IMG/VR virus record: IMGVR_UViG_2703718833_000007
Coordinates: 1 to 64,000 of that record
Length of the DNA: 64,000 nt
Direction: 5' to 3' (one strand)
DNA from: a virus
Lineage: Duplodnaviria; Heunggongvirae; Uroviricota; Caudoviricetes
Notes under the pieces: generated by a model
Databases searched by the model: none
Told to the model about the DNA's origin: nothing
What the model saw: only the letters and a program-made list of their open reading frames with translations
Shown here: positions 2,556 through 43,905 of the stretch, piece by piece
Position numbering within the stretch: the stretch's first letter is position 1
Layout of the letters: every line of letters begins with the position of its first letter
Position numbers and translations under genes: made by a program

Positions 2556-3971
2556 TTAAAAAGATGCGTTATTCTGATTGTTTCGTTGGTTAAAACGGCT
2601 TGTGCGATGATTCATTGACTGAATACACGCTGCGGCTGCGCGCGCCTGGTCGCATGGCAAGATATTACCGTTGTCATCAAACCGCTGGTAAACAGTTCCA
2701 GACTTACCATGACGGTTTTTTGACACAATGATTTCCATGTATTCGCGGGCAACAGACTGCTCGTCGTAATACCCATCGCGGTAAACCATGATTATTCTGT
2801 CGGCATCTTGCTCAAGGTTGCCGGAATCACGAAGATCAGAATTATTAGGGCGCTTGTTTGGTCGTTCCTCAACTCGTCGTGATAATTGCGCCAGCGCTAA
2901 CACTGGAACGCGCAATTCTTTCGCCATCATCTTCAACGACCATGACAATTGCCCAACAGCGAGATCATGACGTTCTGCCTTAGCCAGCTTCATCAACCCT
3001 ATGTAGTCAATCATTACCATACCCAGGTTGGGATGTTCCTGTTTCATCCGTTCCGTGGTGGCGCGTATTTCCTCAACCGTTAACTGCGACGCGTCAACGA
3101 TCCACACATCAAGATTAGCAAGTGCGCTCATACCCTGGCCGACATGCGCCCAACCCTCATCATCAAGTTTTACAGGATTGCGCAGGCAGTCAGTTGATAA
3201 ATTACCAGCGCCAGCGATAGCGCGTTCAGTCATCTGATCGAGTGACATTTCAAGCGTGAATAACAAAACGCCAACCCGCTGATCCTTGCTGCCAGGGTAA
3301 GGGCGTTCAGCAGCAGCGCGGGCAATTGCCAGCGCCAACGCAGATTTACCAGACCCAGGGCGTCCGGCGAGAAGCACCAGATCAGTAGCGTTAATGCCGC
3401 CTAACATTTCGTCGAGTGGTTCTATCCCTGTTTTGATGTTGTCAGAATTGACACCGCATTCCATGCGCTTACTTAAAACTTCCGTGTATTCCTGGACAGC
3501 ATCGCGCAACAGAACAGGGATAATCTTGTCTTTCGTTACCTTTAATTTTGAATACCGGGAATCAAAATCTTTCATCGTCTCTTTGACGACCTCAAGCGTC
3601 CCCGTCTCCAGTTTGTAGCGCATATCGTCGATGAGTTCCAACATCTGCCGCCGCTGGTGCTCTTCACGTAGTAGCTGTGCGTATCCCTTCAGGTTGGCAG
3701 CAGACGGGCACGATCTCGCTGTTTGCATTAGCGGTACGAAATTTTCATTACCAATCTCATCACCGACCAGCAATGCATCGATGAGATTCCTGTTTCTGGC
3801 TTGTGCCCGGATAATTTCAAAAGCCCGCTTATACAGCGGAATAGTGAACACTTCAGGATCAAGCGTAGCGAGAACATCTTGCGCGTTAGGGGTTAGGCCA
3901 CCTAACAGCAGCCCGCCGATAACTGACGCCTCACGTTCCTGCCGTAGTGAGTTTATTTGCTCAGTTACCAT
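2556..3971 (-). CDS. DnaB-family replicative DNA helicase
   Basis: 471 aa; Walker A GRPGSGKSALAL and DnaB C-terminal RecA-like domain motifs. Confidence 0.85.
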   Translation of the reverse strand: MVTEQINSLRQEREASVIGGLLLGGLTPNAQDVLATLDPEVFTIPLYKRAFEIIRAQARNRNLIDALLVGDEIGNENFVPLMQTARSCPSAANLKGYAQLLREEHQRRQMLELIDDMRYKLETGTLEVVKETMKDFDSRYSKLKVTKDKIIPVLLRDAVQEYTEVLSKRMECGVNSDNIKTGIEPLDEMLGGINATDLVLLAGRPGSGKSALALAIARAAAERPYPGSKDQRVGVLLFTLEMSLDQMTERAIAGAGNLSTDCLRNPVKLDDEGWAHVGQGMSALANLDVWIVDASQLTVEEIRATTERMKQEHPNLGMVMIDYIGLMKLAKAERHDLAVGQLSWSLKMMAKELRVPVLALAQLSRRVEERPNKRPNNSDLRDSGNLEQDADRIIMVYRDGYYDEQSVAREYMEIIVSKNRHGKSGTVYQRFDDNGNILPCDQARAAAACIQSMNHRTSRFNQRNNQNNASF

Positions 3972-4510
3972 TATGTTATTGCCTCCGGTTTACAAAATGT
4001 ATTTTCATCTGGTGAAGAAATACCGTGGTTATGGTGATAGCCATATTTTATTTCAGCTTCACGCCGCGCCCTTACAGCATCATCATATGATTTCCCCCAG
4101 TACACGCTTATAGTTTTTCTTTTGCCATTTTTACTCCATACTACTATTCTTGATCTCCATACTTTTTTTATTTTATCCCAATAAACGCCAACGCAACCGC
4201 TAGTGTTATCTATTGGCTTCTTTGCGTTTCTTGCATTTTCCCACGCATAAACAAGTCTTAAATTTTCAATTCTATCGTCACCTGGCATGTGATTTATATG
4301 ATCAATCATCATTCCATCAGGGATAGGGCCATTAAACATTTCCCAAACAATTCTATGTCTAAGAAAATATTTTTTATTAATAACTATTTGCCAATAACCT
4401 ATGCTCCCCCTACATCCTGCCACATCACCGGGTTTTATTCTTGTTTTGTATCTGTGTTCTTTCCAGTACAAAACACCATTGCTATAAATAAATAATTTAC
4501 TCCATTCCAT
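3971..4510 (-). CDS. HNH endonuclease with AP2 domain (homing-endonuclease-like), copy 1
   Basis: HNH_3-like DHINH...N motif, AP2-like segment, C-terminal KYGYHHNHG; start taken at internal ATG 4510 to avoid 160-nt overlap. Confidence 0.75.
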   Translation of the reverse strand: MEWSKLFIYSNGVLYWKEHRYKTRIKPGDVAGCRGSIGYWQIVINKKYFLRHRIVWEMFNGPIPDGMMIDHINHMPGDDRIENLRLVYAWENARNAKKPIDNTSGCVGVYWDKIKKVWRSRIVVWSKNGKRKTISVYWGKSYDDAVRARREAEIKYGYHHNHGISSPDENTFCKPEAIT

Positions 4511-5624
4511 AATTAGACATCCCAGGTCTATACACAAAGCGCCCAATCTCGCCATATTCAGGACTGTAAATGATAACAGCAGCGCAACGTTGCGAACGCC
4601 ACCCACCACGGGCCGAATAAGCATCTTTAGCAGCCAATGTTCCGTGATGTTCGACAACGCCTAACGATGTTTCAATAACAGATTGATGGTGTAAATGGCC
4701 TACATGCGCGTAAACATATTTAGATTTACCGAAATCATCCCGCCAGTCAGAAACACAGGCAGCAAGTAAATTTTCTGGCTTTTTGATAGTGTGCCCGTGG
4801 TGGTAAGCAAGGAATGTTTTGCCGTACTGTGTGTGGTGGACGATGGCAGGGGACACGTCAACCTTTACGCGCGGTTCATCTTCGTAAAAAGCCGACAGCG
4901 CAGCACGTAGCCAGATCATTCCTGACTGGTCGTGATTGCCTTCAAGTACCTGTATTTCTACCTCCTTGTGATTCAGCAACATTTTCCCAACAGCACGCCT
5001 TACAGATCTGATAACCACATAAACAAGTTTTGCGTAGCGTGAATCGCAATCCAGGACGTGATTGCTTGATGGCGTAACTGGCAACAGCCCGTCAGAATGC
5101 GCCACATCACCGCCTAACAACAATACAGCTTTTTCAGACATCGGCGCAGCGCCTACCGCGTAGTCAAAGAAGTCATTTAACACGCGCTCAGCGATCCCAG
5201 TGTCGTAGCTCTCGCCGCATTCAGCTTTATGGGCAAGTGCCCCGATATGCAAATCAAATACCGGATAAAGGGCAAGACTTTTTTGAAAATCAATTTCAGG
5301 CACTGGCACGGCCTCCGCGCGTGGTATTTCCTCCGTGAATGCGTCGCGGGCAGCTTCCATTAGCCTTTCCATTTCATCACGGTCACGGGCAGTTTTAATC
5401 CAGCGCATGACCGTATTCCCAGCCTTATCGACAAGAACAGATTCACCAGTAACGCCAAAACCCGGCGCGCGGCGTGTTGATAACAAACCGCGTTTCGCCA
5501 GCTTTGCGCCCAGACGCTCGACGTTGCGTTTTGACATGCCGTATTTTTCAGCGATCTGCTTGTACGTTAAACCGTTGTTATATTCAGCGATCAATTGTTC
5601 ATCGCTGATTTTTCTTTGCGACAT
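4497..5624 (-). CDS. HTH domain fused to calcineurin-like metallophosphoesterase
   Basis: N-terminal HTH (LTYKQIAEKYGMSKRNVERL); phosphoesterase motifs DLHIG, GGDVAHSD, GNHD, GHLHH. Confidence 0.55.
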   Translation of the reverse strand: MSQRKISDEQLIAEYNNGLTYKQIAEKYGMSKRNVERLGAKLAKRGLLSTRRAPGFGVTGESVLVDKAGNTVMRWIKTARDRDEMERLMEAARDAFTEEIPRAEAVPVPEIDFQKSLALYPVFDLHIGALAHKAECGESYDTGIAERVLNDFFDYAVGAAPMSEKAVLLLGGDVAHSDGLLPVTPSSNHVLDCDSRYAKLVYVVIRSVRRAVGKMLLNHKEVEIQVLEGNHDQSGMIWLRAALSAFYEDEPRVKVDVSPAIVHHTQYGKTFLAYHHGHTIKKPENLLAACVSDWRDDFGKSKYVYAHVGHLHHQSVIETSLGVVEHHGTLAAKDAYSARGGWRSQRCAAVIIYSPEYGEIGRFVYRPGMSNYGME

Positions 5625-5655
5625 AATGTTACTTCCTCCGGTTTACTATATGTAT

Positions 5656-8106: not shown

Positions 8107-8412
8107 TGTATTTTCTCCTATGGTTAAAATGAACGCGCTGGCGGGTATCCCATTAGCATTAGATAGCAGTGACTGACCGCTGAACAGATCCCGCCGTTGC
8201 GTGATATTTGTTTTTCGCTTCGCAGCGACACCGGATTTTTAAAGAGCTTTTAAGGTATGTGCCTTTTGTGCTTTCCATTATCTTTTTTCTTGCATCCTTG
8301 CAAGTATGGCCTTACCTTGTCTGCAAGTTTACAGAATGGCGTTAACAGGTCAAGGATTGAAAATTACATTTTGTGACTTGCATCAAATTTTTTTAGGTTA
8401 TAGGGTAGCGAC
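8107..8412. promoter_or_regulatory. divergent immunity-region promoter/operator region
   Basis: Intergenic between divergent repressor and cro-like genes; CTTGCA/TGCAAG repeats at 8289-8304, 8316-8327, 8377-8382. Confidence 0.5.
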
Positions 8413-9060
8413 ATGAAAACAAAATGGTATGACTTAGCGAAACAACTCATGCGGGCGCAGGGTATGAGTCAGGATTCATTGGCAGATCTCATGGGGATCA
8501 CAAAAGGCGGCTTGTCACACTGGCTTAACGGTCGCCGCGAGCCGAATCTTGAAGACATTGCGCGGATCATGCGGGCGCTTGGGCGTCGGCAATTCACTGT
8601 TACACATGATGGAATGGTCATTGATGATTCTGTTTCTAACACGTTGCCGGGAGCGCCACCGCGTGATTTAGGCAGTTACCCGGTTGTTGACTGGAAGGAT
8701 GTAGTAAACAATATGGAAGATGCAAGGCGATCAACATTACCACACGTTACGACTAGCGTTATTTGTTCAGATGATAGTTACTGGCTGGTAGCTAAAGGCG
8801 AATCAATGAACGCGCCGCAAGGATTGAGTATACCAGCGGGGACGATGATACTTGTCGATCCGCACGCGCCAGCTATTGATGGCAAACTGGTTATAGCCCA
8901 ATTGGAGGAGGGGCAGATACCGACGTTTAAACAGTTGATTATTGATGGAGGCAGAAAACTTTTGCGTTCACTGAATCCGTTGTATCCGCCAATCCCTATG
9001 AATCCAGAATCTAAAATCATAGGCGTGGTAGTGGATGCGAAGATCGTAAACCTGCCATAA
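8413..9060 (+). CDS. cI-like repressor (HTH-XRE plus S24 LexA-type peptidase domain)
   Basis: 215 aa; N-terminal HTH, C-terminal S24 peptidase with GESM serine motif and downstream lysine. Confidence 0.85.
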   Translation: MKTKWYDLAKQLMRAQGMSQDSLADLMGITKGGLSHWLNGRREPNLEDIARIMRALGRRQFTVTHDGMVIDDSVSNTLPGAPPRDLGSYPVVDWKDVVNNMEDARRSTLPHVTTSVICSDDSYWLVAKGESMNAPQGLSIPAGTMILVDPHAPAIDGKLVIAQLEEGQIPTFKQLIIDGGRKLLRSLNPLYPPIPMNPESKIIGVVVDAKIVNLP

Positions 9061-9090: not shown

Positions 9091-9183
9091 GCCATAAAAA
9101 CACCAAAACGTAAACAGAAAACGTTATTTATTGTTTAAATATCAATGACATATAAAATATTTTAAAAAAGTATACAAAATGGA

Positions 9184-9212
9184 TTGACTCGGTGTTTTAC
9201 GTGGCGTATATT
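9184..9212 (+). promoter_or_regulatory. PL-like sigma70 promoter
   Basis: TTGACT, 17-bp spacer, TATATT. Confidence 0.5.
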
Positions 9213-9253
9213 GCGAGTCAAAGGAGGAAGCAAGGCAGGGAAAGAAGGTTACT

Positions 9254-9291
9254 TGCTCTTTAACAATCTGGTCAGCCGCTGGAAGTGCGGC
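9254..9291 (+). promoter_or_regulatory. nut-like site (boxA plus boxB hairpin)
   Basis: TGCTCTTTAACAA matches the boxA consensus; 8 nt downstream a GCCGC-TGGAAGT-GCGGC hairpin. Confidence 0.45.
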
Positions 9292-13605: not shown

Positions 13606-13703
13606 CAGCGTGATTGCGATCACATGAACATACATTTTGTGTTGTGATTGCATATCCGTTTTGTAAACTTAAATTAAAGGTTTACATCGCGGAGGAAAGT
13701 AAG

Positions 13704-16862: not shown

Positions 16863-17121
16863 AACAACCACGCCACCGCCGCGCGGCTTTGCCCGTGCTG
16901 TATTCCTGGCTAACGACCGGGCCATCAATCGTGCTACGCTCAACCGCGTTTTACCGGACTGAAATTTACAAAATGGCGTCATTGCGTGATGTGGATCACA
17001 TAATGGCGCTTTTCACCTTGTTCTGACGTATCCGTTTTGTATACTTCAAACAAGCAAAATGCTCTTTAAAAATCCGGCAGCGCTGAAATGCGTAGAAATC
17101 ACCTGAAAAGGAGAGAGCATT

Positions 17122-36954: not shown

Positions 36955-37665
36955 TTGGCCCCTTTATTTTTTATGGTGACAGTTATGATCCATGTTCGAA
37001 CAGGACAATTTGCGGTTGTTGTTGATGGCAGGCGTTACGAGTTTAACCCCTGCTTTGCTGCAATGGCTAAAATAGGCAGTGACAGAGAACTGGTCGAATA
37101 CTTCGCAACGGTGCACGGTGGCAAATATCCATCACGATTGCCAACGGATACAGACCTACGCAATCGCATTCTGGCGCGTTGTTATGGTGAACTGGTGCAA
37201 ACGTCCATCCACATACTTAAATGTTGCTCAGAATGCGAAATAGGCCCGTTATTGGGCGAATGTAGCTTTACTCCTTCTGGTAAGTTGAGACTTAAACCTG
37301 GATTGATGCCCACCAGCGACGTTATCACGCTTGCGCAGCACTGCATGTTCCACGGTTTAATTGGTGACGGACCGGAGGAAGACGTTGGCGATGAGCAGGA
37401 AGGCGACTATAAACAGACTTTTGACATCCTTGAATACGTTTACTCTGCCGTTGCTCACCTGGGATTGTCTGAATCTGAAGCATGGGGCATGACAATGACC
37501 GGATACAGGGCCGCTGTACGCGCTAAAACGCCACCAGACGAAAGAAACGAGAAACGTAAGCCAAACGTTCATATAAATAAACGTGATTATGATGAGCAAA
37601 TGGAGGCCGCTAAAAGGGTGCTGGAATTGATGAAAAAACGCGAGCAAGAAAAAGCCCGGAATTAA
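36955..37665 (+). CDS. putative tail assembly chaperone
   Basis: Position between tail tube and tape measure; basic C-terminus; start uncertain. Confidence 0.4.
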   Translation: MAPLFFMVTVMIHVRTGQFAVVVDGRRYEFNPCFAAMAKIGSDRELVEYFATVHGGKYPSRLPTDTDLRNRILARCYGELVQTSIHILKCCSECEIGPLLGECSFTPSGKLRLKPGLMPTSDVITLAQHCMFHGLIGDGPEEDVGDEQEGDYKQTFDILEYVYSAVAHLGLSESEAWGMTMTGYRAAVRAKTPPDERNEKRKPNVHINKRDYDEQMEAAKRVLELMKKREQEKARN

Positions 37666-37679
37666 CCGGGCCTTTATCT

Positions 37680-37982
37680 TTATTTGTATGCTGCAAATCT
37701 GCATCTTGCCTCATCCAGATCGTGAATATCGTACACGTTATCGTAAATGTAAGTTGCAACCTGTGCTTTCTGTACGTCAGTTGCGTTAGGGAACTCCATG
37801 CTTACAAAAGTCACTGCATCAACGTAGTTCTTAAACATTTTTTTGTTAACGCACAGTGCGTAAATCAATACACCAGGCCAGAAAATCAGCGCGCCAATGA
37901 ATGCCATGAGCATATTCAGATGTTTTTTCTGCGCTACAGCCATAGTTACTACGAAGCCGATGAGTGCAATTACCAGTTCCAT
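37680..37982 (-). CDS. reverse-oriented membrane protein (100 aa, two TM helices)
   Basis: Two hydrophobic helices then soluble C-terminal domain; opposite strand inside tail module. Confidence 0.45.
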   Translation of the reverse strand: MELVIALIGFVVTMAVAQKKHLNMLMAFIGALIFWPGVLIYALCVNKKMFKNYVDAVTFVSMEFPNATDVQKAQVATYIYDNVYDIHDLDEARCRFAAYK

Positions 37983-37992
37983 GATACACCTC

Positions 37993-38100
37993 TCATTTAC
38001 GTTTATCTTCGGTTGTCATTGCCAGCACTAGCACAGCCATCACATTAAATGCTAACCATTCTGTAATATATACATCTATAACCGTTTTGATTGCGTCCAT
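37993..38100 (-). CDS. reverse-oriented small TM peptide (35 aa)
   Basis: MDAIKTVIDVYITEWLAFNVMAVLVLAMTTEDKRK; below track cutoff. Confidence 0.3.
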   Translation of the reverse strand: MDAIKTVIDVYITEWLAFNVMAVLVLAMTTEDKRK

Positions 38101-38113
38101 TTACCCGCCCCGC

Positions 38114-38200
38114 TTATTTCTTGTTTTTAAGTGCTTTCAGCATTTCTTCGATAAAGTCGGCATAGTGCTCATGCTCGTTGGGTCGGTAGTAGTTTTTCAT
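38114..38200 (-). CDS. reverse-oriented small peptide (28 aa)
   Basis: MKNYYRPNEHEHYADFIEEMLKALKNKK; AAGAGGA RBS 7 nt upstream. Confidence 0.25.
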   Translation of the reverse strand: MKNYYRPNEHEHYADFIEEMLKALKNKK

Positions 38201-38276
38201 TTTCTTATCCTCTTTTGCTTCCTCCGGTTAATCCGGCCTTCTAAATCCCTTTACTCTATCCCTTTCCTTTAGCCTC

Positions 38277-38320
38277 TTTATACAAAATGTATTCGTTGAA
38301 GTGAAGCCATTTTGTATAAA
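38277..38320. promoter_or_regulatory. 13-bp perfect inverted repeat (operator-like) between reverse mini-operon and tape measure gene
   Basis: TTTATACAAAATG at 38277-38289 and CATTTTGTATAAA at 38308-38320, 18-bp spacer. Confidence 0.45.
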
Positions 38321-38357
38321 ATAGAGATCAGGATCACACTTTTTACGAGGTTAAATC

Positions 38358-40703
38358 ATGGCTACCAGTTTAGGTACAATTTATTACGAAGTTGATGCAA
38401 AAACTGGTCAACTTCTAGTCGCTCAGAGACAGGCTGATCAGGCTTTTGACAGTATAGAGCGCGGCGCAAAACGTGCCGACCGCCAGGTGAACACGCTTAA
38501 GACTTCAATCAAAGCACTATCCAGGGTCATCCATCTGTTACTTGCTGCGGAGGCTGTGCGCCAGTTTATTGACATGGCGGAGCAAGCAAAAATGCTTCGT
38601 GTCAAAATTAAAATGCTCACAGGTGACGCAGAGGCTGCAGGACGTGTTTTTGACGGCCTGAAAAAAATATCAAAGGAAACCGGGCAAAGCCTTAAAGACA
38701 CTGGCGAATTGTGGCAGGGCCTGGCTATTTCACTAAAGAACACTTCCGCTACGGAAGGCCAATTGCTCAACCTGGTTGGCACTATTCAGAAGATGGGTGC
38801 GTTAGGAGGCGCGTCAGCGGAACAGATGTCTAATTCTATGCGCCAGTTCCGCCAGTCTATAGACGGCGGCGTGCTGCGTGCTGAAGAGTTTAACAGCCTG
38901 TTAGAGAACACGCCGACCATCGTACAGACAATGGCCCGCCATATGGGGTTGTCAATGGGCCAGTTCCGCGCCGAAATGCTGGACGGCAAGATCACGGCTG
39001 AAAGGATGGTTAACGCGATTCAGGCAGCTACACAGGAAACAAACGAGAAGTTTGCACAGTTGCCGCGCACGTCCGGCAAGGCTATCAATGAGCTTAAAGT
39101 TGAGGTGATGGGACTTGTCGAACAGTTAGACGATCTTTTCGGCATATCAGATGGCGTTGTGTCGGCAATAGACTTAATCACTGGTGGCGTTGAGGGATTA
39201 GGTAAAGGCGCAAAATTCGCCGCAACATGTTTCAATACACTAAAAACGGCTGGCAGTGAGTTCATAGACATGTTTGACGACGTGGCTGTTAAGGCTGGCG
39301 AGGTGGCGGAAGAAATCATTAGAATGGTAACGCCAATCAAGGCGCTAATGGATGGCTACAAATGGATGAAGGAGATTGTAGGAAAGCAAACAGAAGAATA
39401 TAACACCAATTATGAGAAGAAATACGGTAAAAGACTTGGTAAGGGAATGCAATTTTGGGATGATTGGCAGGCCGTACTTAACCAAACAAAAGAAAACAAA
39501 GGAACCGACACCGCTAACGACGGCAAGATCACCGGATTCGAGCCGCCAGTAGATAAGCCAGGAAAACCGAAAAAAGGCAAAAAAGACAAGAAATCTGAAG
39601 CTGATCGGCTTGGTGATGAAGGTGTAAGTGTCTCCGACCAGTACAACAAAGACGCCGCCGCTATGCGTAAAGCACTGGAGAACGGCAAGGCCATTGACGC
39701 TGCGTTTGCTCAGGGCAAAATAACCCTCCTTGAGTACAAGGCAGCGCAAAAGGGGATAGGCAAGGAACTGAAGGACGAATTGGCACAAATCCCGGTAGAA
39801 GAATTGCAGGACAAATGGGCGCACATAGTAAGCCCGATGGATCAGCTTAAGGGCGAAATTGACCCAATCAAACAGGCGCAGAATGAATGGGCAGTAAGAA
39901 AGCAAATGTTATTAGACCTGGGCGCTACAGAGGCGCAACAGAGACAGGCGCAGTTAGAATATGAACAACAGATCCGCGATCTGAAGTGGGAGCAGTGGCA
40001 GGCGCAAAGCGACACAAACAGCCTGATCGGTGCTTGTGTTAGCGGCCTCAAAGGTGGCATGGGTAATGCTCTTACCGGCCTGCTAAACGGCACTCAATCA
40101 TTAAGCGAGGTTTTCGCCAACCTGGGAAGCAGCATACTTAACACCGTTGGCAACAAACTCTCAGAAATAGCCGCTAACTGGATAGCAGATCAGTTAATGA
40201 TGGAAACGCAAAGCAAGGCTACCCAGGCAAGCACTGCGGCTGGCGCTGTGGCTGCCCAGGGTGAGATCGCGGCAGCGGCGGCCCCGGCAGCGGCGGCTAC
40301 GGCTGCATCAACTGGCGGTAGTTGGGCTATGGCTGGTGCTGCGGCGCTTTCTGCGATCATGTCGCTGGCAACGTCAATTTTTGGCGGCGGGCGTTATAAT
40401 GGTGGTTCTGTGAATGGTGGTAGTCTGTATCGCGTAGGGGAACACGGAATACCTGAGCTATTCCAGACGAGCAACGGGCGTCAGTATATGATCCCTGGGG
40501 AAAATGGCAGGGTTATTCCTGGCCGCGATCTTTTCAGTGGTGGCGGCATTAATATGCCTGTTAACATCACTGTTCAGACCACAAACGGGTTTAGCGACGA
40601 GGACAGTCGCAGACTTGAGCAGACAATGGAACGTGTAGCGATGAAAATGATGGCAAGGGAATCGCAACGACCGGGCGGAATGTTGCAACCTCGCCGCAAA
40701 TAA
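38358..40703 (+). CDS. tail tape measure protein
   Basis: 781 aa; coiled-coil-rich with Gly-rich C-terminal region; position. Confidence 0.85.
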   Translation: MATSLGTIYYEVDAKTGQLLVAQRQADQAFDSIERGAKRADRQVNTLKTSIKALSRVIHLLLAAEAVRQFIDMAEQAKMLRVKIKMLTGDAEAAGRVFDGLKKISKETGQSLKDTGELWQGLAISLKNTSATEGQLLNLVGTIQKMGALGGASAEQMSNSMRQFRQSIDGGVLRAEEFNSLLENTPTIVQTMARHMGLSMGQFRAEMLDGKITAERMVNAIQAATQETNEKFAQLPRTSGKAINELKVEVMGLVEQLDDLFGISDGVVSAIDLITGGVEGLGKGAKFAATCFNTLKTAGSEFIDMFDDVAVKAGEVAEEIIRMVTPIKALMDGYKWMKEIVGKQTEEYNTNYEKKYGKRLGKGMQFWDDWQAVLNQTKENKGTDTANDGKITGFEPPVDKPGKPKKGKKDKKSEADRLGDEGVSVSDQYNKDAAAMRKALENGKAIDAAFAQGKITLLEYKAAQKGIGKELKDELAQIPVEELQDKWAHIVSPMDQLKGEIDPIKQAQNEWAVRKQMLLDLGATEAQQRQAQLEYEQQIRDLKWEQWQAQSDTNSLIGACVSGLKGGMGNALTGLLNGTQSLSEVFANLGSSILNTVGNKLSEIAANWIADQLMMETQSKATQASTAAGAVAAQGEIAAAAAPAAAATAASTGGSWAMAGAAALSAIMSLATSIFGGGRYNGGSVNGGSLYRVGEHGIPELFQTSNGRQYMIPGENGRVIPGRDLFSGGGINMPVNITVQTTNGFSDEDSRRLEQTMERVAMKMMARESQRPGGMLQPRRK

Positions 40704-41174: not shown

Positions 41175-41681
41175 CTATTTACCGTGATTTGGATGAAAAC
41201 CGTATTTAATTTCGGATTCTTGCCTTGCCTTGATTGCATCATCTTTGCTTTTGAATACCCCTAAATGTTTTAATTTTCCGTTGATTCTGATAACTGCGCA
41301 CCATTTACGCAATCTTTCAAGCCAATAAACACCAGCACAGCCGGATTTATTATTATGGTTGCGACTTCTGTTGTGGTTATTGTCTTGGCAGGTAACTAGC
41401 CGCAAATTTTCTATATGGTTGTTTACCTTATTGTGATCGATATGATCTATTTCCATTCCTTCCGGGATTGGTCCGTTGTGCATTTCCCATATAATTCTAT
41501 GCTCTTGGTATATCCTCCTGTTAAACCCTACATGTATATACCCACTTCGTTTATGAAGGCACCCGGCTCGCTTTCCCGCATATCTTGAATTCCAGGTTTT
41601 GGAAACGCCATTTCTTGGCTTCCATAATATAGCGCCGTCACTGTATATAAAATAATCATTCCAGTTAATTACTTGTGACAT
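41175..41681 (-). CDS. HNH endonuclease with AP2 domain, copy 5
   Basis: IDHIDHN HNH_3 motif, AP2-like segment, C-terminal KYGFHPNHGK. Confidence 0.8.
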   Translation of the reverse strand: MSQVINWNDYFIYSDGAILWKPRNGVSKTWNSRYAGKRAGCLHKRSGYIHVGFNRRIYQEHRIIWEMHNGPIPEGMEIDHIDHNKVNNHIENLRLVTCQDNNHNRSRNHNNKSGCAGVYWLERLRKWCAVIRINGKLKHLGVFKSKDDAIKARQESEIKYGFHPNHGK

Positions 41682-41923
41682 CCGCGCACCCCTGACAATT
41701 CATTAAATTTGTGATGCTCGACGATTACCCATGCTTTCAAGTCCTGGCTATAAACACGCCAATCTAAATTGGCGCGGAAGGCGTAGCCGTAGCCGTCCTT
41801 TAATTTTTTGGGTGCAACATCCTTGTTTAAAAACGCGTTCAGAAGTGCTTTTGCTTTTTTGATTACGTGTCCAGGTGCGTTTTTCTGTGCTTTAAGATTT
41901 TTGTCAATCATTACCAATTTCAT
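41669..41923 (-). CDS. RelE/ParE-superfamily-like small protein (putative toxin)
   Basis: 84 aa; pattern LKDGYGYAFRANLDWRVYSQ...WVIVEHHK resembles RelE/YoeB-type fold; tentative. Confidence 0.35.
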   Translation of the reverse strand: MKLVMIDKNLKAQKNAPGHVIKKAKALLNAFLNKDVAPKKLKDGYGYAFRANLDWRVYSQDLKAWVIVEHHKFNELSGVRGCHK

Positions 41924-41943
41924 AACTCACCCCACGCAATCCA

Positions 41944-42150
41944 TTAGTTGACCACTTTCAGGAAGAAATCACGGTATTCATCTTCTTTTGCGTTCATCAT
42001 GAATTGACCGTATTTGAATGCGTCATCAAAGCCTTTTACAATCGCCACTTCCACCTGTTCGAATGCTTTGTTTAGCATTACCACTACATAGCGTTTCATG
42101 ATGCCCCCCCTTTGTTGGTACTTCTTTCTCTTCTTGCTTTCTATATACAT
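41944..42150 (-). CDS. small hypothetical protein upstream of RelE-like gene
   Basis: 68-aa track ORF; internal Met gives 51 aa; first gene of reverse cassette. Confidence 0.35.
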   Translation of the reverse strand: MYIESKKRKKYQQRGGIMKRYVVVMLNKAFEQVEVAIVKGFDDAFKYGQFMMNAKEDEYRDFFLKVVN

Positions 42151-42269
42151 CTTGTTATGTCCTGTGTGAAGCCATTTTGTAAACTGGGTATAATTCTTGT
42201 GACGAAGTTCTCATTTTTCGCGTAGAAGCGCGTAAAGATGTATGCAATATGTAACTTATAGGGGGAATC

Positions 42270-42623
42270 ATGCCGGAAGTTTTCAGATGGACGCCACAAA
42301 GAAGCTACAGCGTGACCAGGGAACCAAATGTGTCGGTCGTTAAACTTGGTGATGGTTATGAACAGCGCCAGGCGAAAGGGATTAACACGTTGCTTGATAG
42401 CTACACCCTGGTTTTTAAAGGCAGTAGCGCAGGATGCGGTGATGGTGGGAACGTGGCGATCCAGGCAGAAGCATTCTTGAGGGCGCGCGGCGCTGTCGAG
42501 GCTTTTTACTGGTCGCCGTCTATGGATGGCGTGCAAAGGCTTTTTGTTTGCCGTAGCTGGAGTATGACAAAAGACGGGCCTGTATACACGCTAAACGCAA
42601 CATTTGAGCAAGTTGTCAGCTAG
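42270..42623 (+). CDS. minor tail protein M (lambda gpM-like)
   Basis: 117 aa; recalled similarity and position before L/K/I/J. Confidence 0.75.
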   Translation: MPEVFRWTPQRSYSVTREPNVSVVKLGDGYEQRQAKGINTLLDSYTLVFKGSSAGCGDGGNVAIQAEAFLRARGAVEAFYWSPSMDGVQRLFVCRSWSMTKDGPVYTLNATFEQVVS

Positions 42624-42851: not shown

Positions 42852-42989
42852 TCAGTAGTGAATGTACATCAAACTCATTGGGTGAGCGTGCGCCATATTA
42901 TTGGCTATCGCCGCCCAGTCCCAATCGGCAGCATGAACGCCAAATACTATCAGTCCCATTATTATTAGCGCCAAAACTTCTATTTTCAT
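42852..42989 (-). CDS. reverse-oriented small membrane peptide (45 aa)
   Basis: MKIEVLALIIMGLIVFGVHAADWDWAAIANNMAHAHPMSLMYIHY; AGGTGA RBS 6 nt upstream. Confidence 0.3.
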   Translation of the reverse strand: MKIEVLALIIMGLIVFGVHAADWDWAAIANNMAHAHPMSLMYIHY

Positions 42990-42999
42990 AATCTGTCAC

Positions 43000-43248
43000 C
43001 TATAAGTTATCACGCAGGTAATTAACGCCCTTATCAGTGACGAATGAATGGTTGACCTGGTTTTCATCCGTCATAATGATGAATAACTTTTCTTGTAGGT
43101 ACTTAGCTTTCGGGTACAGCGTTAAACAGACCTGGTACAGTATCCCGCGCTCAATCAGCAAATCAATAAATTCGTGCTCATGATAACCGATGATGCGAGC
43201 GGCCTGTTTCAACGTGTACACATAATCGCCGTGATTGCGCCGCGCCAT
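43000..43248 (-). CDS. hypothetical protein (82 aa), reverse cassette
   Basis: Operon-context ORF on opposite strand within tail module. Confidence 0.4.
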   Translation of the reverse strand: MARRNHGDYVYTLKQAARIIGYHEHEFIDLLIERGILYQVCLTLYPKAKYLQEKLFIIMTDENQVNHSFVTDKGVNYLRDNL

Positions 43249-43257
43249 ATTGCCGCC

Positions 43258-43608
43258 TTATTTATCGAACGCAGACAAATTATCGATACAGAAATCTTTT
43301 GCCGCTTTTTCGTATTCGCGTTTTGCTTCTGGAACGTCAACCGGAAAACCTTTTGCGTGTATTTCACCAGGGCAAGACTGATCCATAGAATCCGCAAAAT
43401 TAACATTGAAGCTAACATCAATATCTTTAGGGTTCATCTCTTCCACCATATCAGGTACTTGGACCGGAGTAATATCAAAATCACGAGCGTTAGACCAACA
43501 GCGAAGTAATTCGCGACCTTCATCACGCGCCGCAGCATATGTGTCAAATAGGCCCATGCGTTCCCATTCACATTTATCAGTCCAAATTTCTAAACTATAT
43601 TTTTGCAT
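43258..43608 (-). CDS. hypothetical protein (116 aa), reverse cassette
   Basis: Operon-context ORF. Confidence 0.4.
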   Translation of the reverse strand: MQKYSLEIWTDKCEWERMGLFDTYAAARDEGRELLRCWSNARDFDITPVQVPDMVEEMNPKDIDVSFNVNFADSMDQSCPGEIHAKGFPVDVPEAKREYEKAAKDFCIDNLSAFDK

Positions 43609-43621
43609 TTTTGTTAACCTC

Positions 43622-43795
43622 TCATTTGACAGGTTCTATCCTGTACCCCAAAACGCGGTCATCCTCAGCAAGTAAAAGCGCGTCAGTAAGTGCCTCGCCT
43701 TCATCCTTATACAGAGCTACAGTCATTTCCCTGCCATCCGCTAGGAATACCTTCAATCTCCACACCTTATCAACCATCTCACACCTCCGCGCCAT
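43622..43795 (-). CDS. hypothetical protein (57 aa), first gene of reverse cassette
   Basis: Start at ATG 43795 with AGGG RBS; track gives longer 43852 start that would include the palindrome. Confidence 0.35.
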   Translation of the reverse strand: MARRCEMVDKVWRLKVFLADGREMTVALYKDEGEALTDALLLAEDDRVLGYRIEPVK

Positions 43796-43820
43796 TTTGT
43801 TAACCCTGCTTTCTTTTGAG

Positions 43821-43838
43821 TACAATATACATATTGTA
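43821..43838. promoter_or_regulatory. operator-like palindrome upstream of reverse cassette
   Basis: TACAATAT-AC-ATATTGTA, 8-bp inverted arms. Confidence 0.4.
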
Positions 43839-43905
43839 AAAAGCGCTATCAACCGTTTTGGTATGATTTAGCGTGACGGCGATCACAAAATGACAAGGTG
43901 ATAAA

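Follow-up and report, generated by a model that had tools for sequence, protein, structure and literature searches.

Organization of the locus

The window, by which we mean the entire 64,000-nucleotide stretch that was analysed, comes from a phage or prophage of the mEp021/mEpimmI group and is an E. coli prophage. In its tail operon, a cassette of three small minus-strand ORFs lies between a DUF6246 tail gene and the tape measure gene, with an inverted repeat upstream of both the cassette and the tape measure gene (Table 1). The ORFs of 28, 35, and 100 aa and the perfect 13-bp repeat with its 18-bp spacer, both described in a first-pass annotation, were found as described. The DUF6246 gene matched Pfam PF19759 (E 7e-56), and its RefSeq relatives of 681 nt are annotated as DUF6246 family protein; the ORF listing gives this ORF a TTG start at 36955. 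Across 37600-38350 the GC content was 38-43% compared with 45-55% in the flanking tail genes, and the skews were inverted. Eight nt past the stop codon of the 100-aa gene there is a GC hairpin (37654-37671) with T-runs on both strands, where a terminator scan called terminator-like sites on each strand and where ARNold terminators are annotated in the mEp phage records. We predict that this element stops the DUF6246 transcript in the rightward direction and the transcript of the reverse cassette in the leftward direction.

Table 1. Positions in the window of the genes and sequence elements of the slot
Feature	Position	Strand	Remarks
DUF6246 tail gene	36985..37665	+	tail-assembly-chaperone position; conserved left border of the slot
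Two-way intrinsic terminator (predicted)	37641..37681	both	GCCCGGAATTAACCGGGC between A-run and T-run
100-aa protein gene	37680..37982	-	two membrane helices predicted; C-terminal domain (~50 aa) acidic and helical; orphan family
35-aa single-pass membrane peptide gene (predicted)	37993..38100	-	from hydropathy and dN/dS
28-aa soluble peptide gene	38114..38200	-	first ORF after the predicted promoter
5' leader of the reverse operon	38201..38270	-	purine-rich; hairpin CCGG-ATTAA-CCGG; word GGAGGAAGCAA
Left arm	38277..38289		TTTATACAAAATG; minus strand reads CATTTTGTATAAA; predicted leftward -10 TATAAA (38282 to 38277)
18-bp spacer	38290..38307		constant length, variable sequence; predicted leftward -35 TTCACT (38305 to 38300)
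Right arm	38308..38320		CATTTTGTATAAA; minus strand reads TTTATACAAAATG at -49 to -37, flush with the predicted -35
CRP-type candidate	38323..38338	-	TGTGATCCTGATCTCT; TGTGA-N6-TCACA core 8/10; centre about -60.5 from the predicted leftward start
Tape measure protein gene	38358..40703	+	conserved right border; relatives annotated as tape measure protein

The minus-strand genes and their products

Kyte-Doolittle windows revealed two hydrophobic stretches in the 100-aa protein (residues 1-19 and 21-46), one in the 35-aa peptide (residues 12-30), and none in the 28-aa peptide, in agreement with the two membrane segments and the single one proposed at first pass for the 100-aa and 35-aa products. 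Each ORF is preceded by a Shine-Dalgarno-like sequence, and the intergenic gaps are 13 and 10 nt. All three sequences were under purifying selection, with dN/dS values of 0.10 for the 100-aa protein (over 10 unique alleles), 0.20 for the 35-aa peptide, and 0.06 for the 28-aa peptide. On the strength of these values we treat the small ORFs as real genes of a reverse operon.

For the 100-aa protein, a word-indexed homologue search of 5.8 billion proteins returned just 8 close clusters, and a profile search of 1.8 billion representatives added only the protein P0009 and a fragment. Its AlphaFold2 model (pLDDT 72) was all helical, and Foldseek found no fold match in the PDB with E <= 0.001. When the three proteins and five alternative cargoes from related loci were compared with Pfam, PHROGs, and PADLOC, nothing was significant except the match of a 124-aa lipoprotein cargo to a PHROG of unknown function. 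A known small membrane toxin, holin, or defence protein was rejected on the grounds that the best Pfam matches were below threshold (Hol_Tox, E 0.19) and that neither PADLOC nor the PDB fold comparison gave a match.

The 35-aa gene accompanied the 100-aa gene in 14/14 loci, and in locus L171 the 35-aa gene was duplicated in tandem. The 28-aa ORF was found in 34 of 50 slots independently of the downstream cargo, and in locus L066 it was the sole gene of the slot on the tape measure side. This ORF is unannotated in the mEp021 record.

Exchange of cargo in a conserved slot

Minus-strand cargo was always present between the DUF6246 and tape measure genes in about 100 related loci, and whereas the cargo varied, the repeat and the two-way terminator were constant. 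Among 50 oriented loci, all of which had minus-strand ORFs, the distance from the DUF6246 stop codon to the repeat ranged from 561 to 1237 nt, and seven recurrent cargo families were stacked in many combinations. The cargo types were mostly envelope-targeted and included the 35-aa and 100-aa membrane pair, periplasmic proteins, and lipoproteins. Relatives with different cargo shared only the promoter module of ~60 nt, the 28-aa ORF, and the terminal ~40 nt of the slot with the terminator, and we suggest that cargo is swapped among relatives by recombination within these conserved ends. The frame would comprise four parts: the inverted-repeat promoter module, the purine-rich leader, usually the 28-aa ORF, and the terminator that also serves the DUF6246 gene. 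An attC-like recombination site was rejected as a reading of the repeat, which is single and stands at one end of the slot, not between stacked cassettes.

Of the loci retrieved by protein and not by the repeat, all that were complete and had at least 71% DUF6246 identity contained the repeat. Most loci with distant DUF6246 homologues were without the slot and none had the repeat; in L115 and L117-L120, the tape measure gene directly followed the DUF6246 gene. A profile scan of genome contigs with the DUF6246 alignment gave no confirmed locus.

Locus L066 contained a second module in another slot, between the tail tube and DUF6246 genes, with the same arms, an 18-nt spacer of different sequence, and the same TGTGA offset. 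This second module precedes P0009, a distant homologue of the 100-aa protein, and is predicted to drive its expression. Because a copy occurs at another slot, we regard the promoter module as belonging to the cassette and not to the tape measure gene. Neither the interchangeability of the cargo nor the repeat as a promoter element of a cassette formed part of the first-pass annotation.

Structure and conservation of the inverted repeat

The arms of the repeat were complementary at 13/13 positions, and the predicted fold of -19 to -21 kcal/mol (z -4.9 and -5.5 for the two strands) was equalled by 0/200 shuffles. In most of the ~100 related loci the arms were unchanged and in the rest they differed by at most two bases, whereas the spacer and the left flank varied. 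To judge from this pattern the repeat, which is conserved across the phage group, is functionally constrained. An alignment of the 43 unique modules from 101 loci revealed four constant blocks, namely TGTGAT, the almost invariant TCTATTTTATACAAAATGgCTT, the TT of the predicted -35 hexamer, and CATTTTGTATAA in the left arm, whose positions were invariant or at least 90% conserved. An AACGA block in the spacer was also at least 90% conserved.

The fold is stable and the tape measure start codon follows 38 nt downstream, which raises the possibility of an RNA hairpin in the rightward late transcript that would serve in processing, stabilisation, or translational control. The arms hardly varied, which makes RNA covariation uninformative, and the few variants seen were uncompensated: two of three arm variants break a pair of the plus-strand RNA, as does the AAATTG variant in L170. 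Further evidence against a hairpin is that in L066 a different gene follows the second copy, which moves together with its cassette, and that Rfam has no family in 37400-38600. An intrinsic terminator at 38277-38320 was rejected, with an AT-rich stem, no T-run on either strand (hence no U-run in the RNA), and no terminator called. We consider a function of the repeat as RNA very improbable.

A predicted leftward promoter

Our best reading of the repeat, predicted from the arrangement and conservation of its parts, makes it the core of a conserved sigma-70 promoter that points leftward. The left arm would provide the 3' part of the promoter spacer and the -10 hexamer (CATTTTG-TATAAA), and the 18-bp spacer of the repeat would carry TTCACT as the -35 hexamer, at a distance of 17 nt. 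The right arm (TTTATACAAAATGG) would form an A/T-rich element abutting the -35, to which the C-terminal domain of the RNA polymerase alpha subunit or an activator in class II position may bind, and a TGTGA half-site at about -61 would take the class I CRP position. Leftward transcription would cover the 28-, 35-, and 100-aa genes in turn and end at the terminator. The 17-nt distance between -35 and -10 was constant in the 43 unique modules, and the TT of the -35 was kept in all variants (TTCACT, TTTACT, TTCATT, TTTGCT, TTCAGT, TTTATT, and TTTCTT). Against this reading, a consensus promoter scan did not call the leftward promoter, the -10 TATAAA is without the usual final T, and the -35 agrees with 4/6 consensus positions. 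The constancy of AACGA also counts against it, as a plain promoter spacer would not need such constancy, and a promoter alone does not account for the exact mirror symmetry of the arms.

The leader that would follow this promoter shares the word GGAGGAAGCAA, an 11-mer, with the leader of the early rightward promoter, and the two leaders are similar; as a whole, the leader of the reverse operon folded no better than shuffles (z 0.15).

The symmetric arms, each with an outward-facing TATAAA, would also be compatible with overlapping back-to-back promoters, in which the right arm (CCATTTTGTATAAAAT) serves as a rightward -10 from which transcription resumes into the tape measure gene and the tail genes beyond it, and RNA polymerase, occupying one promoter at a time, sets a switch. 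A similar GTGAAGCCATTTTGTAAACT stands before the next plus-strand tail gene past the second reverse cassette (42173) and CCGTTTTGGTATGAT before the tail L gene past the third (43855), and by our reading the early leftward promoter TTGACC-16-TAAACT (8330-8315) has this -10-like block as its -10 region. The at least 90% conserved spacer sequence TCGTTGAA includes TTGAAG, which could be taken for a rightward -35, but it is just 13-15 nt from the candidate -10 hexamers, a distance that is in part our own reading. The candidate -35 TTCGTT, which lies at the mirror position with 17 nt to the rightward TATAAA, was not conserved in the 43 modules, its first two positions being TT, CT, GT, or TA, and the rightward -10 of the duplicated module in L066 is TATAGA. 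An unregulated promoter for tail genes would moreover be costly in a lysogen. Based on these data, a pair of divergent promoters is quite unlikely, and the leftward promoter remains our preferred reading.

Upstream elements of the predicted promoter

At class I promoters the CRP site is centred near -61.5, and UP elements are A/T-rich sequences from -59 to -38 with a T-tract and an A-tract that are bound by the C-terminal domain of the RNA polymerase alpha subunit. TGTGAT was kept in all relatives, an invariance that is partly imposed since our orientation rule demanded TCACA at that offset, and the right half of the CRP-like site varied. The corresponding site of the second module in L066 was TGTGATGAATGTCGCA, with 9/10 agreement. 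Matches to TGTGA-N6-TCACA were not enriched in the window at up to two mismatches (25 versus 29.9 expected) and were modestly enriched at up to one mismatch (6 versus 2.2 expected). The sequence TTTTATACAAAATGG at -51 to -37 agrees with 6/8 specified positions of the published consensus of the proximal UP subsite, AAAAAARNR, and the right arm is predicted to be either an activator site or a UP-like element composed of a T-tract plus an A-tract.

The arrangement is similar to class I CRP promoters of the lac P1 type, for which it is established that a TGTGA-N6-TCnCn site at about -60.5/-61.5 is followed by A/T-rich DNA as far as the -35, which is of the TTTACT/TTCACT type and precedes a 17-nt spacer. 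At our locus, by contrast, only the TGTGA half is conserved, the role of CRP and the transcription start are predictions, and the -10 region recurs upstream as an exact inverted copy in the A/T element, a feature absent from lac. Readings of the arms as sites for OmpR, IHF, Fis, sigma-54, or sigma-S were compared by eye with the consensus sequences, and none fitted across the relatives.

Recurrence of the arm motif in the window

The suggestion made at first pass that elements related to the repeat occur elsewhere was borne out by a motif search, in which the core motif recurred non-randomly: TACAAAAYG was found 12 times in the window compared with 1.81 expected, and the exact 10-mer ATACAAAATG 6 times compared with 0.43 expected, with 0/100 shuffles reaching either count. 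Copies were located at the early rightward promoter (9172), at the second reverse cassette (42181), and flanking nutR2 (16966 and 17041). The early rightward promoter (TTGACT-17-TATATT, 9172-9213) and the second reverse cassette's promoter (TTCACA-17-TATATA, 42182-42142) share with the repeat the layout of motif, one base, -35, 17 nt, and -10. At three promoters the motif is in a fixed register, flush with the -35 hexamer (-47 to -37). At the early rightward promoter the motif was invariant in 31 unique sequences, whereas the promoter spacer varied. This fixed register fits a UP-like element or the position of a class II activator as well as it fits an operator.

For the two elements that had been placed in the leaders of the DnaB and phosphoesterase genes, the results were mixed. 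The 3.98-kb element is real (TTACAAAATGTAT at 3990), with its core kept in mEp013, but it has no evident promoter around it and lies at the extreme end of the preceding ORF, adjoining the DnaB ribosome-binding site. The 5.64-kb element is a loose copy in the window (TACATATAGTA, with three mismatches), while the orthologous site in mEp013 is perfect (TACAAAATGTA). As for the single regulator of dispersed promoters proposed at first pass, the motif does stand at other regulatory places, but no dedicated DNA-binding protein could be tied to it.

Such a regulator would make the arms operators for a phage or host DNA-binding protein, either the CI-like repressor Rep or another factor, that recognises ATACAAAAYG and jointly controls the nutR2 region, the reverse cassettes, and the early rightward promoter. 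The leftward promoter would be activated when this protein sits at about -42 and repressed when it occupies the -10 arm. The excess of the motif argues for an operator, and by our reading 8/12 sites are intergenic, with the site at 3991 at the end of the preceding ORF. Arms that are constant to the base around a variable spacer are typical of sequence-specific recognition. The arm variant AAAACG has no compensating change in its partner arm but is identical to the paralogous sites at 13.66 and 17.04 kb, as would be expected if one position of the recognised sequence were degenerate. A second inverted pair of motifs with a spacer of ~55 bp flanks nutR2 at the two positions given above, and unrelated AT-rich phage contigs have the same arms around TTGACT-17-TATAAT beside an XRE/ImmA-type repressor gene. 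The motif centre at about -41.5 also matches the geometry of class II activation, which is used by lambda CI at OR2.

Several observations weigh against operators. In addition to the missing candidate protein, some motif sites are found beside ribosome-binding sites or in coding sequence and not at promoters. Rep was 92-99% identical in all contigs with the repeat, and co-variation with the repressor is uninformative because every relative has the same CI-like Rep. Lambda CI operators are tandem pseudo-palindromes of ~17 bp that overlap core promoters of the immunity region, and cooperative CI pairs have centres 23-24 bp apart. In most relatives, the individual arms are not palindromic and have no internal dyad symmetry (ATACAAAATGGAG), and the arm centres are 31 bp apart; on these grounds, an operator of the lambda CI type was rejected. 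Another likeness is the C1 regulon of P1, in which many asymmetric operators are scattered over the genome: here too a short asymmetric motif is present at many separate regulatory places, with some inverted pairs. The differences are that the resident repressor resembles lambda CI and not P1 C1, that several motif copies are off promoters, and that the binding protein is only putative. Overall, we regard operators as an unlikely explanation of the arms. It would be distinctly improbable that the palindrome is a two-way switch, with a factor at about -42, perhaps the CI-like repressor, activating the reverse cassette promoters in the lysogen. If true, this would amount to a repressor-activated lysogenic-conversion regulon with interchangeable cargo inside the tail operon, linked to the early rightward promoter and nutR2. 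The fixed motif at the predicted leftward promoter and at the early rightward promoter may reflect common regulation or only a common promoter architecture.

Comparison with known morons and possible function

The locus has extra DNA between genes that are adjacent in related phages, a base composition distinct from that of its neighbours (GC 0.38-0.43 versus 0.45-0.55), a terminator of its own that is conserved in relatives, and a candidate promoter of its own, in a TT-17-TATAA arrangement with an invariant upstream block, that the consensus scan did not call. It is probably a moron in the sense of Juhala and Hendrix, with the gp15 moron of HK97 as the closest analogue. In HK97, a temperate E. 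coli siphophage, gene 15 is likewise an accessory gene that separates the tail assembly chaperone gene from the tape measure gene. It has its own terminator and encodes a small hydrophobic inner-membrane protein (membrane insertion being a prediction for our proteins), and its annotation at this same position is that of a moron product. The HK97 prophage expresses gp15 as an inner-membrane exclusion protein, and the block that it imposes on genome entry depends on the tail (PMC3594210). In contrast, gp15 is a single 62-aa protein with one helix, encoded on the same strand as the tail genes, while our locus is a three-gene operon on the opposite strand with a palindromic promoter module conserved across the group, interchangeable cargo, and a predicted function. 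BLASTP against HK97 gp15 gave no alignment with E <= 100, and membership in the gp15/YebO family was rejected in view of this result and of the absence of a Pfam or PHROG match.

A second comparison can be made with the Lpp/Cor-type exclusion lipoproteins of the mEpimmI phages, envelope proteins expressed for exclusion by the same phage group (PMC11893012); lipoproteins are also among the alternative cargoes of our slot. The lipoprotein genes tested in PMC11893012 are gp81 (mEp021) and gp116 (mEp010), and the slot gene in mEp021 is mEp021_63. That paper makes no mention of the slot locus, the repeat, or the 28-, 35-, and 100-aa genes.

Because HK97 gp15 has the same position and the alternative cargoes are envelope-biased, we suggest that the 35-aa and 100-aa proteins, a pair predicted to insert into the inner membrane, are most likely prophage products that act at the cell envelope, and that superinfection exclusion at the DNA-entry step would be their most likely activity. 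This exclusion function is proposed from position and predicted localisation. With moderate confidence, which applies jointly to the slot, the leftward promoter, and the envelope role, we propose that the locus is a reverse-oriented moron slot in the tail operon with a fixed frame and variable cargo that has not been characterised previously.

These results may have implications for several questions, as mEpimmI phages are reported to be as common as lambdoid phages in human gut E. coli (PMC11893012). One conserved frame of promoter and terminator around at least seven families of envelope proteins is a clean natural system, and the cargo families may serve in superinfection exclusion or in another function of lysogenic conversion. 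The cargo adjoins the tape measure gene, as does the HK97 gp15 moron, whose exclusion is tail-dependent. The promoter module offers a compact test case for the expression of prophage accessory genes against the direction of a late operon, and the motif that it has in common with the early rightward promoter gives this test case a second use, in separating common regulation from common promoter architecture. If the cargo does exclude phages, it would include new and very small exclusion factors, among them the pair of 35 and 100 aa without known relatives.

Anatomy of the slot and evidence for its genes

The minus-strand accessory-gene region between the DUF6246 tail gene and the tape measure gene (the slot) contains three small ORFs, separated by gaps of 13 and 10 nt and each preceded by a Shine-Dalgarno-like sequence, together with an inverted repeat whose arms are perfectly complementary over 13 bp across an 18-bp spacer. 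GC content drops to 0.38-0.43 in this cassette, and the repeat folded far more strongly than shuffled sequence on both strands (z -4.9 and -5.5). The ORF coordinates, arm comparison and folding scores thus confirmed the arrangement of minus-strand ORFs and perfect repeat described in the first-pass annotation.

Features of the slot and sites of the shared motif outside the three coding-sequence matches
Feature	Position	Strand	Remarks
DUF6246 gene	36985-37665		left border of slot
100-aa ORF	37680-37982	minus	two membrane segments (hydropathy)
35-aa ORF	37993-38100	minus	one membrane segment (hydropathy)
28-aa ORF	38114-38200	minus	no membrane segment (hydropathy)
Left arm TTTATACAAAATG	38277-38289		13 bp
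Right arm CATTTTGTATAAA	38308-38320		13 bp
Tape measure gene	38358-40703		right border of slot
Motif	3991		adjoins ribosome-binding site
Motif	9172		flush with -35 of early rightward promoter TTGACT-17-TATATT, ahead of nutR1 boxA and N-like gp17 gene
Motif	9638		adjoins ribosome-binding site
Motif	13665	minus	intergenic
Motif pair	16966 and 17041		inverted, TTACAAAATGG and CCGTTTTGTAT, spacer ~55 bp; directly upstream of nutR2 boxA GCTCTTTAAAAA
Motif	42181	minus	same register before TTCACA-17-TATATA, putative promoter of second reverse cassette

Nei-Gojobori comparisons of relatives bore out the proposal that the three minus-strand ORFs are genes: pairwise dN/dS was lowest in the 28-aa gene (0.06), followed by the 100-aa gene (0.10, from 10 unique alleles with a mean dS of 0.78) and the 35-aa gene (0.20). 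Because of these selection data, we prefer these ORFs to the plus-strand hypothetical CDSs that PHANOTATE placed over all three in the GenBank records of mEp554, mEp010, mEp044 and mEp515 (loci L001, L003, L004 and L005). The 28-aa ORF carries no annotation in the mEp021 record, and the plus-strand calls over it in other records are probably spurious.

Escherichia phages mEp554 and mEp044 were 94-95% identical to the region, its flanks matched mEp021, mEp010, mEp515, mEp013 and MagusPhagus, and related prophages were found in 29 of 5,426 complete E. coli genomes. These phages belong to the mEpimmI group of Nus-dependent, non-lambdoid temperate siphophages (PMC11893012), in the description of which the locus, the repeat and the 28-, 35- and 100-aa genes go unmentioned.

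Conservation of the repeat and its link to the cassette

The arms were identical in 12 relatives found by BLAST, even where the left side was unrelated (mEp013, UMNK88, E21845), and the spacer in these relatives was constant in length and variable in sequence. Among relatives found through the DUF6246 protein, a route unbiased with respect to the repeat, all complete loci at an identity of at least 71% contained it. Arm variants were few (outer T to C, AAAATG to AAAACG, TATAAA to TATAGA, and AAAATG to AAATTG), and none of the four was accompanied by a compensating change in the opposite arm. The repeat is constrained. Profile searching with the 100-aa protein recovered one distant homologue, P0009 (122 aa, E 8e-20), whose contig, L066, contains two repeat modules. 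The first precedes the tape measure gene, and the 28-aa ORF is the only gene in its slot. The second is found ahead of P0009, flanked by the tail tube and DUF6246 genes; its arms are unchanged, its 18-nt spacer differs in sequence, and TGTGA again lies 14 nt beyond the arm. The repeat is therefore a component of the cassette and not a feature of the tape measure gene itself.

In a further contig (L025:4737-4776) a palindrome of greater length, also perfect, was seen in an unrelated context: TATACAAAATGTATT-N10-AATACATTTTGTATA. Unrelated AT-rich IMG/VR phage contigs (L015, L019, L020, L032, L047, L049, L058, L059 and L062) carry TATACAAAATGTA and TACATTTTGTATA 27-28 bp apart, flanking a TTGACT-17-TATAAT promoter; in L015 the pair has the early genes on one side and, on the other, an XRE-type repressor accompanied by an ImmA-like protease, and the same arm sequence there looks like an immunity operator.

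A predicted leftward promoter

From upstream to downstream on the minus strand, the repeat and its flanking blocks (the module) read TGTGAT-N14-TATACAAAATGG-C-TTCACT-N17-TATAAA. In an alignment of 43 unique modules from 101 loci, TCTATTTTATACAAAATGgCTT at -57 to -33 and CATTTTGTATAA at -18 to -7, relative to the assumed start, were invariant or nearly so; the -35 hexamer kept its TT (TTCACT, TTTACT, TTCATT, TTTGCT, TTCAGT, TTTATT, TTTCTT), and TTCGTT, the mirror-position hexamer for a rightward promoter, showed no conservation. TGTGAT at -68 to -63 was also invariant or nearly so, which was partly imposed by an orientation rule demanding TCACA at that offset. TGTGA-N6-TCTCT is centred at about -60.5, near the class I CRP position, and matches the CRP consensus core at 8/10 positions in the window and 9/10 in the second L066 module. 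UP elements have a T-tract plus A-tract arrangement, and the arm adjoining the -35, a T-tract and A-tract at -51 to -37, would on this reading be UP-element-like. Since this leftward promoter went uncalled in a simple consensus scan and the predicted -10 (TATAAA) is without the final T, we can only infer promoter activity for the module.

Recurrence of the motif in the window

Related elements near 3.98 and 5.64 kb had been taken to suggest one DNA-binding regulator controlling dispersed promoters. The common sequence signal is real: counts in the window exceed expectation for both ATACAAAATG (6 observed, 0.43 expected) and TACAAAAYG (12 observed, 1.8 expected). Three sites fall within coding sequence (1041, 14095 and 22874), roughly the chance number, and the remaining sites are mostly retained in mEp013, in which both arms of the inverted pair (region 16966-17076) are perfect. 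The element near 3.98 kb was present, but that at 5.64 kb is degenerate in the window, and part of the recurrence originally noticed is due to near-identical translation-initiation modules, GTAAACCGGAGG-N-AATAACAT(A/T)ATG, at 3971-4000 and 5620-5650 on the minus strand, preceding the DnaB-like gene and the gene at 5.62 kb. At 9172 the motif was invariant across 31 unique sequences, with a variable promoter spacer. The fixed register beside the -35 fits a common promoter architecture no less well than it fits a dedicated regulator. Rep, the CI-like repressor, is a full-length lambda CI homologue; it varies too little among the repeat-bearing contigs (92-99% identity in all of them) for co-variation with the arms to be informative on its candidate binding.

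A second reverse cassette (41175-42213), between the tape measure gene and a minor tail protein gene (42270-42623), encodes a 51-aa ORF, an 84-aa ParE-like protein (PF24732, E 2e-7) and a 168-aa HNH endonuclease (PF13392). The 16-mer TACAAAATGGCTTCAC is common to the studied module and this cassette's putative leftward promoter, which has TGTGACGAAGTTCTCA upstream. A third (42852-43608), before the tail L gene, includes an 82-aa KilAC/ANT-like protein and is preceded, in our reading, by a similar layout of TGTGATCGCCGTCACG, ATACCAAAACGG and TTGATA-17-TATATT. In the intergenic region there (within 42852-43905) are a perfect palindrome, TACAATATACATATTGTA, at 43821-43838; CGTGACGGCGATCACA at 43872-43887; and TGGTATGAT, which resembles an extended -10 and is directed towards the tail L gene. 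Three exact copies of CGTGA-N4-GATCACA (13609-13624, 16985-17000 and 43872-43887; 0.24 expected at no more than one mismatch), all intergenic and each with a CCGTTTTG(G)TAnAnT block at a distance of 40-50 nt, could be candidate operators of some regulator, or CRP sites. Sequences resembling boxA in nutL (minus strand) and nutR1 (8230-8247 and 9255-9272) are inverted copies of each other over 18 nt, at a separation of 1 kb. In a separate observation, the repressor gene opens with codons, ACAAAATGGTATGACT (8419-8434), that are similar to ACAAAATGGATTGACT, the -35 region of the early rightward promoter.

Exchangeable cargo and possible function

In 50 oriented loci, each containing DUF6246 as well as the repeat, the slot measured 561-1237 nt and was always occupied by minus-strand ORFs. 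The 28-aa ORF was present in 34 and the 35-aa and 100-aa pair, never apart, in 14; the other exchangeable genes encoded a 219-aa lipoprotein with the RefSeq name TagO (15), a 138-aa protein with a signal peptide (14), a 124-aa BamE-like lipoprotein (11), a 116-119-aa protein with a signal peptide (9), a 106-aa protein (5) and several singletons, combined in many different stacks. Extra relatives had a 60-aa gene or a second 35-aa gene in tandem with the first; one such relative, of metagenomic origin (L171:407-633), has the tandem membrane peptide genes ahead of the 100-aa gene. Where cargo differed, relatives had in common only the first ~60 nt beside the repeat, the terminator-bearing final ~40 nt, and the 28-aa ORF. 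In most distant DUF6246 homologues (28-41% identity) the tape measure gene follows directly, and not one of the distant homologue loci carried the repeat. Given the constant slot, variable cargo, low GC and lack of an insert in most distant homologues, the anatomy is that of a moron hot spot.

Homologue and profile searches found no relatives of the 100-aa protein beyond a narrow family, its structure model (all helical, pLDDT 72) had no fold match, and there were no matches to defence or toxin families. By position, the nearest known case is HK97 gene 15, the first named moron, which likewise has the chaperone gene on one side and the tape measure gene on the other. Its product, a small inner-membrane protein expressed from the prophage, mediates a tail-dependent block of genome entry (PMC3594210). 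It has no sequence similarity to the proteins studied here. Because the majority of alternative cargoes are exported or membrane proteins, and because of this positional parallel, we favour action of the slot proteins at the level of the envelope in the lysogen, with superinfection exclusion as their most likely function. The locus merits modest follow-up. It is an element of an ordinary kind, newly described for the mEpimmI group and distinguished by an unusually well-defined, portable palindromic module, a predicted promoter, and by its orphan small membrane proteins.
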